Source: a bacterium (GTDB lineage Bacteria; Patescibacteriota; Minisyncoccia; Phycocordibacterales; Phycocordibacteraceae). Taken from it: 64,000 bases of DNA. Where the stretch lies: assembly GCA_037200965.1 (NCBI GenBank), contig JBBCGK010000001.1, positions 224,001 through 288,000 of the forward strand, in the 5' to 3' direction. Below the pieces are notes generated by a model. It made no database searches. It had not been told where the DNA came from and was given only the letters and a program-made list of their open reading frames with translations. Position numbers and translations under genes: made by a program. Numbering within the stretch: the stretch's first letter is position 1; each line of letters begins with the position of its first letter. Positions 5,259 to 27,276 of this stretch are shown here, piece after piece.

Positions 5259-6173
5259 TTAGAGCCAGCGCTTGCGGACGACGAAGAGCGCGAGGAGGCC
5301 GGACAGGAGAAGCATGATGCCGATCACGATCCAGAAGTCGTACGGCTCGCCGATGATAGGTGTGTCGCGCATGTTCATCTGGAAGAGCGCCGCTACAAGG
5401 GTCAAAGGAAGCGTGATGAACGCCATGATGGTGAGCGTCTTCATGATTTCGTTCTGGGCGGCGGTGAGGAGAGCCATGTTGTTTTCCCGCAGTTCGGTCG
5501 CGGTTGCGCGATAGGTCGAGACGAGATGCGAAATACGCGCACGTTCGGCAAGAATACGCTTCTCGCGTACGCAAAAGCCGCTGCCGAAAAAGCCCGGGAG
5601 CGCGAGCGTCTCGAGGAATGTTTCGAGCGGCTGCTCTTCGCGGGTGAGAAGGTTCTCGAAGTGGAGGAATTCGCGTCCGACCTCCGCGATCGGGCGGACC
5701 ATGAGCGCTTCGTCGCCGCGCGCGATCTCACGCTCGATGCGCACCAGCGTTCCCGCCGCGCGCGCGACTTCGCTCCTGACCGATCCGTAGAGGCGGTAGA
5801 GGACAAGCTCGAGAAGCGCGTCCGCCTTGGCTTCGCCTCCGACTCCGAGAAGCTCTTCCGTCTCGAAATCCTTGTTTAGTTTATGGAGCGAATCGACCAC
5901 CTCATAGTGCGCGGTGATAAGGAAATCCCTGCCCACGATGATGTCGATCTCCTGGTCCTTAAGGCCCCCGCGGCTCCTTGGAGCAGGGAAGTGGAGCACC
6001 ACGAACGCGGCCTTCCCGAAGGCGGCGAACGCCGGATACGGGGTGGGCGAGGTTATCTCATTGCCGATCCGGGGGTCAAGATCGAACTCCCTGCGCACCG
6101 CCTCCGATTCTTCCTCGGTCGCGCCCTCAAGGTCGATCCACGTGACCCCGCCGCGCGTGTGCCGTGTCGTCAT
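5259..6173 (-). CDS. corA: CorA-family Mg2+/Co2+ transporter
   Basis: C-terminal two TM helices with FQMNM (GMN-like) motif; start trimmed to internal Met at 6173 (MTTRHTRGG) because the longer ORF overlaps the divergent gene. Confidence 0.75.
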   Translation of the reverse strand: MTTRHTRGGVTWIDLEGATEEESEAVRREFDLDPRIGNEITSPTPYPAFAAFGKAAFVVLHFPAPRSRGGLKDQEIDIIVGRDFLITAHYEVVDSLHKLNKDFETEELLGVGGEAKADALLELVLYRLYGSVRSEVARAAGTLVRIEREIARGDEALMVRPIAEVGREFLHFENLLTREEQPLETFLETLALPGFFGSGFCVREKRILAERARISHLVSTYRATATELRENNMALLTAAQNEIMKTLTIMAFITLPLTLVAALFQMNMRDTPIIGEPYDFWIVIGIMLLLSGLLALFVVRKRWL

Positions 6174-22870: not shown

Positions 22871-23764
22871 CTATCCTCCCGGAGCGCATACGCCCGAGAG
22901 CGTCTTCGCGCCCGGAACGCCGCAGCGGCTTGCGGAACATGCCCATGCGCTCATTGTCGGCGTATAGAGGCCGCAGGCGGCCTGCGTGTTGATTTTCGGA
23001 TCCTGAGCCGCACGAACGCACTGAGTATAGAGATTCTGGTCTTTAACGGAAGAGTCGCACCACCCTACCTTGCCCTGATTCCGTATGTACTGCCCCGAGC
23101 ACGGGTGCGTGAATGCGGCCGGGCAATTAAGACTGCCGAGCTTCGTCGTCGTGAGATTGATCTGCCAAAGTCCCCAAGAATAGCTCGGTCCCTTTCCCTT
23201 ATCGAGCTTGTCGGATCCGCTCGGGATCGCGGTTTGTCCGCCCGCGCTTTCGAGATTGCATACTTTCGACGCCACTTCCCCGTTTGCCGCGAAGCATGTT
23301 CCTTGGAGGCCTTGCACGCTGCAGGGGTTGTTCGCGTTTGAAGGCACCTTGCACGAACTGTTTCCCGAACTCGGCGTCGCGGAAACATTGGTCGCCGTTA
23401 CTGGTGCCCGCGGCGTGCTGAGCTCAAGACAGGCAGCCTCGCCCCCGGAAATGATCGCGTTCCACGGCCCGAACGTGCCGTTATAGAGCGCATTCATGAC
23501 CGTATTGACGATAAGCCATGCACCAAGGACGACCAGAAGACCGATTACCGTCTGCAGCACCACGGTTCGCGCCTGCTTCACGTTATCCGGACTCGCGGCG
23601 TTGGTTACGAACAGGAATCCCGCGTACACCAGCAGAAGCACGGCAAAAAAGACCGCCAGATACAGGCCGAATTTGAGAAGGTTCTGAACTACGGCGAAAA
23701 AACCGCCCCAGCCGCAGGCGCAATGCTGGCAGATCTCGGGGACGATGCTCCCGGTGAAGTCCAT
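22871..23764 (-). CDS. pilin-like two-TM N-terminal domain fused to Cys-rich extracellular domain
   Basis: N-terminal TM - short polar loop (NAASPDNVKQAR) - TM - LIVNTV architecture matches the pilin-like array at 36902..39247; C-terminal 200 aa has 20 Cys. Confidence 0.5.
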   Translation of the reverse strand: MDFTGSIVPEICQHCACGWGGFFAVVQNLLKFGLYLAVFFAVLLLVYAGFLFVTNAASPDNVKQARTVVLQTVIGLLVVLGAWLIVNTVMNALYNGTFGPWNAIISGGEAACLELSTPRAPVTATNVSATPSSGNSSCKVPSNANNPCSVQGLQGTCFAANGEVASKVCNLESAGGQTAIPSGSDKLDKGKGPSYSWGLWQINLTTTKLGSLNCPAAFTHPCSGQYIRNQGKVGWCDSSVKDQNLYTQCVRAAQDPKINTQAACGLYTPTMSAWACSASRCGVPGAKTLSGVCAPGG

Positions 23765-23837: not shown

Positions 23838-24521
23838 GTGCCTGCTACACTGGGTTCAATGAAATTGAAAGAGAAGGAGGCCGCAATACGCCTGCGCTAC
23901 AAAGGGCATACGCTAAACGAGATAACCGCGATGCTGGGAGTCGCAAAAAGTTCCGTGTCGCTCTGGGTGAGGACGTTGGATATTTCTCCGCAGGCGCGGG
24001 AACGGATAGCGTCGCTGCAAACTACAGGACAGAAGACGGCCCGAAACAACAGATTGGCGCTGACTTCTCGCATACTTTCGGAAGCAAAAGAAGATGCGGA
24101 TGTCCTGACGAAGCGTATCAAACTGGATAAAGATTGGGCACTTGTAGTGTGCAGCCTTCTATATTGGTGCGAGGGAGAAAAGAGCCATAATGACGGCAGG
24201 TTCAGATTTTCAAATTCGGATGTCGATATAATACGGGCGTTCGTTGTGCTGTTGCGAACGGCACTTGTTCTTGATGAAAGAAAGTTCAGAATCTGCATGC
24301 ACCTTCACGAATATCATAATGAGTCAAAACTGCGATTGTTCTGGTCGGAGATAACCGGAATCCCGGAAGAGCAATTTCTTAAAACATTTTGGAAACCGCA
24401 TACCGGAAAGACCATAAAACAAGGATACCCGGGCTGCATACACATTACGTACCACGATGTACGGGTAGCGCGAAAAATATCCGCTACTGCCCGAGCGTTT
24501 CTTAAAAGCATGGTACAATGA
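23838..24521 (+). CDS. HTH protein, possible LAGLIDADG-like homing endonuclease
   Basis: N-terminal HTH (GHTLNEITAMLGVAKSSVSLWV), LLYWCEGEKSHNDGRF block resembling a single LAGLIDADG motif; lower-GC region, ends 7 nt before tRNA-Trp. Confidence 0.3.
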   Translation: MPATLGSMKLKEKEAAIRLRYKGHTLNEITAMLGVAKSSVSLWVRTLDISPQARERIASLQTTGQKTARNNRLALTSRILSEAKEDADVLTKRIKLDKDWALVVCSLLYWCEGEKSHNDGRFRFSNSDVDIIRAFVVLLRTALVLDERKFRICMHLHEYHNESKLRLFWSEITGIPEEQFLKTFWKPHTGKTIKQGYPGCIHITYHDVRVARKISATARAFLKSMVQ

Positions 24522-24528
24522 TGGATAC

Positions 24529-24600
24529 GGGTCCATAGTTTCAATGGTAAAACGCTTCTCTCCAAAAGAAGTATTGCTGGTTCGAGTCCAGCTGGGCCCG
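24529..24600 (+). tRNA. tRNA-Trp (anticodon CCA)
   Basis: acceptor GGGTCCA/TGGGCCC (one G-U), U8 A9, D-stem GTTT/AAAC, anticodon arm CTTCT-CTCCAAA-AGAAG, T-arm GCTGG-TTCGAGT-CCAGC, discriminator G. Confidence 0.8.
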
Positions 24601-24622
24601 CTAAAAGTGATACACTGAGCGC

Positions 24623-25024
24623 ATGGAAACTATTGCCGTACGTCTTACCGATGGGCAAGATTTACTGGTGGAAATCAAGGACGTAACCTTTAAACAGGAT
24701 ATCGAAGCGGGCGTTATTCTTTCCGGAGTCGGAAGTTTGAAGAAAGCGAAAATCCGTGTTCCGGTGATAAACGGTGAAGTAAAGTACATCGAACCACAGA
24801 ACCTAGAGATCGATGCGCTGCATGGAACAGTGTCAAAAAACGGTTGTCATGTGCATATTACTGTTTCTGATATTTCAGGAAACGCCTATGGAGGGCATAT
24901 AAAGGAAGGGTGTATCGTCCGGACTACATGCGAACTGGTGATAGGAATAGTGAAGAACACCCGCTTTAAGCGCACACTAGATCCCGCTACCGGATTTGAA
25001 GAGCTCGTAATCGAAACCGCTTAA
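24623..25024 (+). CDS. PPC/DUF296 domain protein
   Basis: 133 aa; pattern ...ILSGVGSL...ALHGTVSKNGCHVHITVSD..GNAYGGHIKEG typical of PPC (PF03479). Confidence 0.55.
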   Translation: METIAVRLTDGQDLLVEIKDVTFKQDIEAGVILSGVGSLKKAKIRVPVINGEVKYIEPQNLEIDALHGTVSKNGCHVHITVSDISGNAYGGHIKEGCIVRTTCELVIGIVKNTRFKRTLDPATGFEELVIETA

Positions 25025-26090
25025 ACCCCTCTTGTCCGAAACCAGAAATCATTCTTTATCTCTTCCGTAAGGCGATACGCATCGGCGTGGGAGAGGACGC
25101 CAAGATATGAATTAAAAGATGAAAGGACAGTTGTTTCACTTGTATTGCCTGTCCTAAATTCCGCTGCACGCTTCCGAAGCTTCCGGATGATTCTCTGTTT
25201 TGTCTTCCGGCGTAGGGCGATATGCCCGGGCAATACGACGTATCCGAGGAAGTCGATCCCTTGTCGATACGTGCGGATAAAGACTTTATCAGGATGAAGG
25301 GAGAGGTGAAGTCGTTCTTCAAGAAACGTGCCAATTTCGGGAATCAGACTCTCAAGATACGAACGGTCTCCTGACACGATTACGAAATCATCCGTATATC
25401 GCATATAATGTTTGACCCTAAGCCCATGCTTTATAAATTGGTCGAGCTCGTTCATATACACGTTGGCGAAAAGCTGGCTCGTAAGATTGCCGATCGGCAC
25501 TCCGTTCCTTGGCGTATCGTCCCCCCCCCCCCCCCCCCATTCAATCCGGCCGTATAGCTTTCGATAACTTCTTCGAGAAGCCAGAGAACTTCCGGATCGG
25601 CGATTTTCTTTCTGAGAATGCCGAGCAGTACCGCGTGATTGATGGTGTCGAAAAACTTCCGTACGTCGCACTTCAAGGCGAAACAAGGCCGCGTCCCGTT
25701 CGCACTTACCGCACGCAGCGAATGCTTCAAATATTCGACGCCTTTGTGCGTGCCCTTTCCTATCCGGCAGGAAAAAGAGGACGCTATAAAGGTCGGCTCG
25801 AAAACCGGATTGAGTATCTTAAAAATCGCATGGTGGAGTACGCGGTCGCGTACCGTCGCCTTATGTATGCGCCGTATCTTTGGGTCGCGGATCCAAAAAC
25901 CCCGGTACGGCCCGTGGCGGTAATACTTGCCGCGCAGCTCCCGAGCAAGTTTGAAAAGTTCATACTCGACGTTTTGCTCGAAAGCCGCCACGTCCGGTTT
26001 GCCGCGCTTATCGCGCTTAAAGATATCCCACGCCTCGAACAGGTTTTCTGGCGAGGTTATCGATCCGTATAAGTCCTTATATACCTTCAT
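25021..26090 (-). CDS. DGR-type reverse transcriptase, interrupted by a -1 frameshift in a poly-G tract
   Basis: Two overlapping ORFs (25452..26090 and 25021..25686) that together give a 356-aa RT: N-terminal fingers, IGNLTSQ (the I/LGxxxSQ motif diagnostic of DGR RTs), YTDD catalytic motif; frames differ by one nt at the homopolymer. Confidence 0.8.
25521..25538. repeat. homopolymer tract (18 C on plus = poly-G in RT coding strand)
   Basis: length 18 from ORF-track arithmetic (my visual count of the line suggested up to 22); 19 or 22 nt would put both RT halves in one frame. Confidence 0.8.
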
Positions 26091-26444
26091 ATGAATAGTG
26101 ACCTAGACATACCGATTTTCAAGAAGAGTTACGACCTGTATAAGATGTTCTACGGCTACCGCGCCGACGTGTCGAAGCAGGATCGATACACGATCTGGCA
26201 GCGTTCGGAGAATTCCATCCTCGACATCGTCGAGGCGATTCTGCTTGCAAGCCAGTCAAGTAAAGCGGAGAAACTTCCGATACTTGAGGGGGCGAGCGTG
26301 AAGCTCAACCTGGTACGGATTCTGGTTCGACTCACGAAGGACGTGAAAGCCATCGATAACAAGAAATACCTTGCGCTTGAAGCGAACGTTGACGAGATCG
26401 GCAGGATGCTTGGCGGATGGATCCGTTCGGCCAAGGAACGGTAG
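26091..26444 (+). CDS. avd: Avd-like four-helix-bundle protein (DGR accessory variability determinant family)
   Basis: 117 aa; C-terminal DEIGRMLGGWIRSAK matches the bAvd/four-helix-bundle family; start codon directly abuts the RT start (CAT|ATG). Confidence 0.7.
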   Translation: MNSDLDIPIFKKSYDLYKMFYGYRADVSKQDRYTIWQRSENSILDIVEAILLASQSSKAEKLPILEGASVKLNLVRILVRLTKDVKAIDNKKYLALEANVDEIGRMLGGWIRSAKER

Positions 26445-27276
26445 GAGAAATCCGCCGAGGAGGCGGATCTTCTTCCGGATAGAGAAACGACTGCCAGGCA
26501 GCGGCCAGACCGAGGTCGGAGACGCGGTAGCTGTCCCAGTAGGGGCTGACGTTGACGGACTCGGAGTCGACGCCGACATAGACGTGATTGCCGTCCGCGT
26601 CGAGACTGGACGTGCGAACGTAGAGACTCTTGAAGAGCCAAACGCCACGGACTTCGAAGAAGACCGTGATGAACCAGCTCGTCTCGGCGGCGTTCGGGAC
26701 GCGTTCGGTGTTCGAGGGCAGCAGGGTCTGTTCGCCCCAGGTTTTGCTCGTCGAACCCGTGACTTCCGTCTTCTTGTGGGCGAACCACCCGGAGCCGGTG
26801 AGATCGCTCTGCGCGAACCTCGCCTGCTCGTACCAGCCGCCGGTCTTGCTGGAGAAGAGCTTGGGCTTCAGGGCACGGATGGCCAGGAGCGCGAGCATCT
26901 GCGGCGAGTGCGGCATCAGGGCATAGCCAGCGGCCTTGAGCGCGTTCAGCGTCTCGACCGGCGGAATGCTGTCCGCGAGCGCTTCGATCTGCTGCGCGCT
27001 GTAGGCGATGTCCGGACGCTTCGCCATGATCTCTTCGGCGGTGATGAAGTCGCCGCCAAGGATGGAACGCGCGAGCGTGTAATCCGGCTGCTTTGCCGAA
27101 AGGCGCGTCACCAGGGCGACGAACCCTTCGTCGAATTCACCGCGGCGCCTGAAGAGGCGCTGGTGAGCTTCGTGATCGAGGGGAACATCGCTGCGAATGC
27201 GCGCGGCGGCGGATGCGATCATCTCGTCGAGGTGGTCGTGTTGGCCTGACGTGGCCGGGGATGCCGACATGGTCAT
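26332..27276 (-). CDS. hypothetical protein, candidate DGR target (unverified)
   Basis: 314-aa ORF upstream of RT on same strand; Gly/Trp-rich C-terminal region (TGGWYEQARF...GSGWFAHKK...); last about 37 codons are antisense to avd and look non-protein-like, so the true 3' end is uncertain. Confidence 0.4.
   Translation of the reverse strand: MTMSASPATSGQHDHLDEMIASAAARIRSDVPLDHEAHQRLFRRRGEFDEGFVALVTRLSAKQPDYTLARSILGGDFITAEEIMAKRPDIAYSAQQIEALADSIPPVETLNALKAAGYALMPHSPQMLALLAIRALKPKLFSSKTGGWYEQARFAQSDLTGSGWFAHKKTEVTGSTSKTWGEQTLLPSNTERVPNAAETSWFITVFFEVRGVWLFKSLYVRTSSLDADGNHVYVGVDSESVNVSPYWDSYRVSDLGLAAAWQSFLYPEEDPPPRRISPTVPWPNGSIRQASCRSRQRSLQAQGISCYRWLSRPS

Follow-up and report, generated by a model that had tools for sequence, protein, structure and literature searches.

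A candidate slippage switch in the reverse transcriptase gene of a diversity-generating retroelement from Patescibacteria

The window analysed here is a stretch of 64,000 nucleotides (nt) from a bacterium of the Patescibacteriota (contig JBBCGK010000001.1, positions 224,001 to 288,000). It contains a reverse transcriptase (RT) gene of the type found in diversity-generating retroelements (DGRs), split by a run of 18 G's on its coding strand into two halves that are one nt out of frame with each other. On balance, we judge it probable that this G tract is a true repeat, prone to slippage, at a hot spot shared across the clade, where changes in length at replication toggle the frame of the RT. 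Comparison with the DNA of related loci suggests that an ON/OFF toggle by repeat tracts is recurrent in the DGR RTs of Patescibacteria. At this locus, the tract is 18 nt (the window) or 19 nt long depending on the assembly, and the DGR has no separate template repeat (TR).

The G tract and the reading frame of the RT gene

The RT gene occupies window positions 25021..26090 on the reverse strand and matches Pfam RVT_1 (2.4e-22). Its N-terminal frame (25452-26090) carries motifs 1-3, and its C-terminal frame (25021 up to the tract) carries motif 4, IGNLTSQ, together with YTDD and the thumb; IGNLTSQ and YTDD conform to the (I/L/V)GxxxSQ form of motif 4 and the YxDD by which DGR RTs are recognised. 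The best match of the repaired RT in the PDB was 8ub7_A (E = 8e-43), which is bRT of Bordetella phage BPP-1 (100% sequence identity), while group II intron RTs matched at ~1e-22 to 4e-22. In Patescibacteria, homologues with 58-68% identity are numerous, under names such as Paceibacterota, Parcubacteria and Uhrbacteria. A group II intron RT/maturase was considered and rejected, with a TIGR04416 score of 146 bits against a cutoff of 300 and a motif 4 of the DGR type, not PQG..SP; for a group II intron, retron or defence RT at large, NCBIfam and PADLOC returned only sub-threshold or generic RT matches.

The accessory variability determinant gene, avd, stands beside the RT gene as in other DGRs (26091..26444, forward strand; Pfam bAvd PF22296, 5e-16, 59.6 bits against a cutoff of 40); in NCBIfam, it scores 72.6 bits with DivGenRetAVD, just below the cutoff of 80. 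The start codons of avd and the RT gene abut on opposite strands, in a divergent arrangement that recurs in all 15 relatives checked. Beyond the tract, neither gene in the window contains a further stop or frameshift.

The tract consists of exactly 18 C's on the forward strand at 25521-25538, i.e., G18 on the coding strand. The second-longest homopolymer of the 64-kb window measures 7 nt, and the number of runs of at least 18 nt expected by chance from the base composition (C ~0.295) is ~3e-5. Two open reading frames (ORFs) meet at the tract, 25452..26090 of 212 amino acids, the last 27 codons of which are in the wrong frame, and 25021..25686 of 221 amino acids, both on the reverse strand. An earlier note on this DNA, made from the letters alone, had described the two RT halves as separate ORFs offset by one nt at a tract of 18, and its description agrees with the coordinates found here; the count of 22 that it gave as an alternative is wrong, as direct counting gives 18.

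When the tract length was edited in silico, lengths of 13, 16, 19 or 22 each yielded one ORF of 354-357 amino acids, and all remaining lengths led to a stop at about residue 210-225. The earlier note's proposal that one added G (19, or 22) repairs the gene held: G19 yields an RT of 356 amino acids with the junction ...AGLNGGGGGGDDTPRNGVPIGNLTSQ... The tract lies ~20 nt before motif 4. It codes for the run of Gly residues in a disordered loop that immediately precedes the motif, and the frame in which the catalytic half of the RT is read depends on the tract length. It has the form of the repeats in contingency genes, namely a long intragenic repeat with units that shift the frame, out of frame at G18 and in frame at G16, G19 and G22. 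Judged from the translations, an out-of-frame tract would remove motifs 4-7 and the thumb and is predicted to be a null allele.

The loop that hosts the tract is a 15-residue insertion relative to BPP-1 bRT. In a protein alignment, it varies from 0 to 22 amino acids amongst homologues, with low-complexity inserts such as RERERES and GGGG. The AlphaFold model of the RT has a mean predicted local distance difference test (pLDDT) score of 87.9 and a predicted template modelling (pTM) score of 0.84, and residues 182-193 (GLNGGGGGGDDT) form its only segment with a pLDDT below 50. In-frame tracts of very different lengths are probably tolerated because the loop, as modelled, is flexible and at the surface.

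Repeat tracts at the same loop of related RT genes

We screened 165 sequences (loci L001-L164 and the whole window) for pairs of repeats with mismatches almost exclusively at the adenines of one copy, i.e., a TR and its variable repeat (VR), and found them in 99. Because 99 loci carry such adenine-specific pairs, the RT family is, by this sequence signature, a genuine DGR clade of Patescibacteria. In the orientation of the RT, the relatives are laid out as the target gene with the VR, ~370 nt, the TR, avd (on the reverse strand) and the RT gene. At L009 and L039, two DGR RT genes are found within ~4 kb on one contig, and each is accompanied by a TR/VR pair of its own.

At the DNA level, 160 related loci, taken by score from the top of larger hit lists, were examined for repeats of at least 10 nt between motifs 3 and 4, giving 161 RT-gene entries (the related loci and the window's two alleles). 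In 141 entries, the loop is free of such repeats, and every one of these genes is in frame. The remaining 20 have, on the sense strand, a perfect (GA)5-35, a G run of 10-19 nt or a mixed tract; the distance from the end of the repeat to motif 4 is about 8-40 nt (mostly ~20 nt). Eight of these 20 are out of frame (L052, L053, L072, L134, L135, L137, L154 and the window), against none of the 141 without a repeat (Fisher p = 1.3e-8). The density of repeats is 1.13 per kb in the loop and 0.029 per kb elsewhere in the loci, a ~39-fold difference. The earlier note had advised checking homologous contigs for tract length; the related genes with a repeat have G or GA units at the same loop.

In each of the eight out-of-frame genes, one slippage step restores an ORF of 346-376 amino acids, and no other lesion was found. 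Four of them (L052, L053, L072 and L135) retain TR/VR pairs with 17-21 adenine-specific mismatches. A neighbour-joining tree distributes the repeat-bearing RTs over ~10 separate blocks amongst repeat-free relatives, all confined to the Patescibacteria part of the tree. The clade of the window comprises the window with G18, L134 with (GA)15, L135 with (GA)12 and L137 with G10, all four out of frame in the assembled consensus.

Alleles of different tract length occur in near-identical relatives. In two protein clusters (P0006 and P0009, at least 90% identity), a full-length RT of 346 amino acids with ...AGGGSKGIP corresponds to G9, and a form of 345 amino acids with ...AGGSKGIP corresponds to G6, likewise in frame; truncated forms that end, before a stop codon, in ...AGGVLKAFR, ...AGGGF and ...AGGGVLKAFR correspond to G8, G10 and G11, respectively. 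For (GA)n, length variants were sought through protein clusters, which were mostly single-member: only the P0112 cluster was informative, with an in-frame form (P0112, P0149) and an out-of-frame form one unit longer (P0150).

At the DNA level, we compared short-read contigs of the same gene neighbourhood from the groundwater project PRJNA268031 and other studies. A G10 tract with a split RT occurs in seven contigs (L169-L174 and L137; L172 and L137 are the same Joint Genome Institute contig), and a G9 tract with an intact RT of 346 amino acids in three (L175-L177). Identity amongst these contigs is 99.0-99.9%; between L175 and L169, it is 99.8%, and their alignment has a single gap, of 1 nt. 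Both G9 and G10 contigs retain a TR/VR pair, with 16 adenine-specific mismatches. Homopolymers of 9-10 nt are well within short-read accuracy, and for this reason G9 and G10 can be taken as real alleles. The VR consensus (L169/L175:1992-2101) is identical in G9 (ON) and G10 (OFF) contigs, as represented by L169, L171, L175 and L176; the assembled VR consensus thus shows no sign of different diversification histories for the two alleles.

Repeats also occur at other places in and near these RT genes. There is a second internal hot spot in a loop at RT residues ~131-133 (L139, L143, L146 and L152). Further repeats lie between -48 and +2 nt of the RT start (L025, L027, L029, L039, L055, L084, L124 and L051), mostly in non-coding DNA 15-50 nt before the ATG, and at the RT C-terminus (L024 and L039); the repeats at these further hot spots are G10-G12, (GA)5-27 and (GT)9-13. 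Over 1.1 Mb, 34 of 52 repeats of at least 10 nt are located in, or at most 150 nt from, RT genes, and the repeats near RT genes are nearly all purine tracts on the RT sense strand. In L136 (258-284), the tract at the loop is a hybrid, (GA)8 directly followed by G11.

The model that we propose begins with a tract in a disordered, insertion-tolerant surface loop that would gain or lose units by slipped-strand mispairing at replication. A change of unit number would shift motifs 4-7 and the thumb, the catalytic half of the RT, into or out of frame, by which RT production, and hence DGR mutagenesis, would be switched ON or OFF in a heritable and presumably reversible manner, with a putative selective value. 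We also entertain, tentatively and without calling it probable, a wider reading in which purine tracts at a few fixed RT positions are selected contingency switches that gate targeted hypermutation, i.e., a hypermutable switch on a hypermutator. An extension of this contingency-switch reading is more speculative: the L136 hybrid, and the G18 of the window amongst sisters with (GA)12-15, hint that poly-G tracts derived from (GA)n by A-to-G changes. That the adenine-mutagenic RT itself made these changes is pure speculation.

Tract length in the assemblies and the lost template repeat

By exact-protein look-up of Avd and of the neighbour with a PCC domain, the locus was found in four places: the source copy, JBBCBH010010897.1 (a 960-kb contig of GCA_037975565.1), with G18; the Logan assembly of SRR28211700; the metagenome-assembled genome (MAG) GCA_015655515.1, in two contigs; and the Logan assembly of SRR10968228. 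JBBCBH was co-assembled with hifiasm-meta from the PacBio Sequel II HiFi reads of four deadwood samples (runs SRR28211698-701), and SRR10968228 is the Illumina HiSeq metagenome of sample 7 (PMC11613949). Apart from SRR28211700, SRR10968228 and the assemblies derived from these runs, no data set was found to contain the organism. Every copy matches the window at 100% identity, save for the 19 C's in the Logan contig of SRR28211700 (L003): this contig is otherwise identical to the window over 4258 nt, and its RT is called as one gene of 356 amino acids. In the Illumina HiSeq MAG, one contig, JAATEX010000126.1, stops eight C's into the tract (25528), and another, JAATEX010000215.1, begins at 25582, 43 nt past it. 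The tract is real and neither a two-colour artefact nor a chimeric join, and its exact length, 18 or 19, is beyond what the HiFi assemblies settle.

In terms of the toggle, the deadwood population would be represented in the OFF state by the G18 of the HiFi co-assembly and in the ON state by the G19 of the second assembly, and this may be either true heterogeneity or a consensus error. The 18/19 difference comes from two assemblies of the same HiFi data and is inseparable from error in circular consensus sequencing (CCS). A pure consensus error, in which essentially all cells would have G19 with an intact, constitutive RT and G18 would be a miscall of the HiFi reads or hifiasm, is unlikely in our view, though it retains real weight. 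The independent k-mer assembly of SRR28211700 gives G19 and a clean ORF of 356 amino acids, RT and avd are otherwise free of defects, and CCS reads of even the highest quality (Q80) often miscall homopolymer length, leaving a large share of wrong homopolymer alleles in Sequel II data (PMC11878640). The argument from miscalls, however, applies equally to G19, such that neither length is validated, and the short-read assembly broke at the tract instead of resolving its length. Moreover, G9 and G10 differ between near-identical genomes in Illumina assemblies, within the accuracy of that platform, and the three closest relatives of the window are likewise out of frame. An error in homopolymer length, which the earlier note had offered as one of its explanations, is thus plausible for this locus in view of the intact RT in the SRR28211700 assembly and of CCS miscalls, with the reservation that holds for both lengths.

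The state of the DGR around the tract bears on a second alternative. Within the 64-kb window, no TR/VR-like pair was detected by a repeat search, by blastn of 21-31 kb against the window or by blasting the entire window against itself and filtering for adenine mismatches, so that the window lacks what is expected of a DGR, a TR and a VR that differ almost only at the adenines of the TR. It has instead a single hybrid repeat of 114 nt (26490..26603, reverse strand), which can be aligned with the TR of the closest relative, L135, and equally with the VR of that relative. The window is colinear from 26603 to 25035 with the TR, avd and RT gene of L135 and from 27162 to 26490 with the 3′ portion of the target gene of L135, its VR included; the TR-side and VR-side alignments overlap in this one segment. 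The body of the hybrid repeat is VR-like, with substitutions in the adenine codons (AAC/AAT/AAG of the TR changed to TAT, AGC, CCC, TAC, GTC, etc.). Its 5′ context is that of the target gene (VR type) and its 3′ context is of the TR type, with the crossover in the GC-rich end of the repeat, at 26494-26514. The TR-type 3′ flank (CAGTCGTTTCTCTATCCGG..., 26435..26493, reverse strand) comes after the TR, not the VR, in the aligned relatives. Within this flank, a hairpin at 26448-26470 has a folding energy of -18.1 kcal/mol (z = -2.2); the hairpins of L135 and L134 (z = -4.4 and -4.6) differ from it in sequence, i.e., the structure is conserved and the sequence is not.

The target gene, a homologue of the L135 target (26332..27276, reverse strand), contains the VR-like body, and its natural stop is replaced by read-through across the hybrid repeat. 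The ORF runs ~50 amino acids beyond the ...GLASARKF ending of the L135 protein into avd antisense, overlapping avd by 113 nt. The target protein has no Pfam match, even at E <= 1. On the simplest reading of the alignments, the TR was lost by deletion through recombination between VR and TR, and because of this deletion the target ORF would no longer stop after the VR. The hybrid repeat is not an assembly collapse, since the HiFi and Illumina assemblies agree there. The window, as far as its sequence tells, is the remnant of a DGR (a fixed VR, avd and the RT gene) and not a complete one.

Since this copy has no separate TR, the state of the RT is without an obvious output in diversification here; diversification should now be independent of whether the RT is ON or OFF, provided that no TR lies beyond the window. 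The suggestion in the earlier note that the tract turns the retroelement on and off is therefore overstated for this copy: in our model, the window's switch would sit on a crippled element that lost its TR separately, by the VR x TR deletion. We consider it improbable, and clearly more so than a consensus error, that the tract marks a fixed inactivating frameshift, the site of the first lesion in an RT gene that is becoming a pseudogene within a decaying DGR. Such decay would accord with the missing TR and the read-through of the target gene into avd antisense, with the relaxed selection under which an RT without a template should be, and with the G18 consensus of the deposited co-assembly. 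It fits less well with the lack of any other stop or frameshift in RT and avd and with the G19 allele in the other assembly of that sample; relatives that are out of frame but keep their TR/VR pairs intact are likewise exactly one step from ON, which fits toggling better.

RNA polymerase tends to slip on long homopolymers, and on GGG, tRNA-Gly can pair again without mismatch in the -1 frame. Full-length RT could then be made from the OFF allele by recoding, either through RNA polymerase slippage or through -1 ribosomal frameshifting, with the tract tuning the dose. A -1 shift on G18 does give the correct frame; most relatives, however, have (GA)n, which is not a classical slippery site, and discrete in-frame and out-of-frame DNA alleles suffice to explain the data. 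As the main route to RT, recoding is very improbable in our view. The two-colour poly-G artefact raised in the earlier note (long G runs are a known artefact of NextSeq and NovaSeq) and an artificial joining of two contigs where reads end in poly-G are both refuted, because the tract is present in three assemblies from two technologies, PacBio Sequel II HiFi and Illumina HiSeq, and its flanks are the halves of one RT gene, colinear with relatives.

Several points weigh against the toggle that we favour. The G9 and G10 contigs differ at 0.05-1% of other sites, and what they display is polymorphism between close strains, not switching within a clone. At the window's locus, the HiFi reads behind G18 and those behind G19 are probably the same for the most part, and both lengths are assembly consensus, hence they demonstrate no heterogeneity within the population; consensus sequences of MAGs hide such variation. 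Assembly errors may account for some of the (GA)n tracts called out of frame in MAGs. As the window's DGR has no TR, its frameshift could be a mere first step of decay. Set against these points, the slipped-strand switch put forward in the earlier note is strongly supported for the gene family by the loop hot spot, the ON and OFF alleles and the one-step distance between them, and it is not proven at this locus.

The surroundings of the RT gene have features of their own. The RT gene is convergent with the forward-strand gene for the PCC-domain protein, and their stop codons overlap by 4 nt (25021-25024). Both lie in an island of low GC content (23850-26400; 44-51%, against ~59% for the window), which holds a helix-turn-helix (HTH) gene (23838-24521), a tRNA-Trp gene (24529-24601), the PCC-domain gene (24623-25024), the RT gene and avd; the adjoining target gene has 61-66% GC. 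The island may be a horizontally acquired block beside a tRNA gene. Further along, 22871-23764 (reverse strand) encodes a protein of 297 amino acids with an N-terminal match to pilins of type IV secretion and conjugal transfer (Pfam T4SS_pilin, 1e-4; NCBIfam Mbov_0395 pilin-like, 2.5e-6, below the cutoff); pilin-like proteins of this kind are typical of Patescibacteria genomes. Apart from the G tract, the sole repeats of at least 10 nt in the window are five (CG)5 decamers at 5757, 6255, 11653, 33171 and 62180, which possibly reflect just the composition of a genome with 59% GC.

Comparison with known systems and implications

The tract resembles the poly-G/C contingency loci of Campylobacter jejuni, Neisseria and Haemophilus in being an intragenic homopolymer or dinucleotide repeat, a unit change of which shifts the frame, with in-frame and out-of-frame alleles amongst near-identical sequences and each OFF allele one step from ON. 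It differs from them in the gated gene, which here is the RT of a retroelement, i.e., a targeted mutator, and not a surface or restriction-modification gene, in its Patescibacteria hosts and in the position of the tract, which lies mid-gene in a disordered loop and not near the 5′ end. Contingency loci have recently been reported in phages as well (PMC12633550).

With the DGR of BPP-1 (mtd/VR - avd - TR - brt), the system shares the DGR motif 4, (I/L)GxxxSQ, a closest structure that is bRT itself, the Avd partner and, in relatives of the window, TR/VR pairs with adenine-specific mismatches. Unlike in BPP-1, avd and the RT gene lie start-to-start on opposite strands, a loop of 0-22 additional amino acids in the RT hosts the repeat, and the window copy has one VR/TR hybrid repeat and no separate TR. 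Mutator switches at mutL and mutS, based on tandem repeats or prophage excision, operate heritably and reversibly in Salmonella and Streptococcus pyogenes. The proposed toggle would be similar to these as a heritable, reversible genetic switch on an activity that generates mutations; those switches, however, gate genome-wide mismatch repair, whereas a DGR directs hypermutation to sites in a single target gene.

In host group and gene set, the family agrees with the DGRs reported from the candidate phyla radiation (CPR)/Patescibacteria (“DGR clade 2”; Roux et al., bioRxiv 10.1101/2020.04.01.020958; Wu et al., PMC5758913). A term search of Roux et al. gave neither “frameshift” nor “homopolymer”, and in Wu et al. 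it gave only TR/VR indels; neither survey speaks of repeat tracts or of frameshifted RTs. More broadly, the full-text literature and DGR surveys consulted, the coverage of which is incomplete, yielded no account of repeat tracts or of phase variation in the RT genes of DGRs, such that this is an absence of evidence only. If true, ON/OFF control of a DGR RT by a repeat tract would be a previously undescribed layer of regulation.

For this genome, the consequence is modest: the TR is lost and the state of the RT is probably irrelevant to diversification. For the family, the pattern makes DGR regulation in CPR testable with existing metagenome reads. Tract-split RT genes are likely discarded as pseudogenes or assembly errors by DGR-finding pipelines, which would bias estimates of active and inactive DGRs, and such genes should not be thrown out. 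In CPR, where DGRs are very common and regulators scarce, a tract that toggles the RT would provide simple, stochastic ON/OFF control of DGR mutagenesis, by which most cells would stay genetically stable while a subpopulation diversifies a surface or ligand-binding protein.

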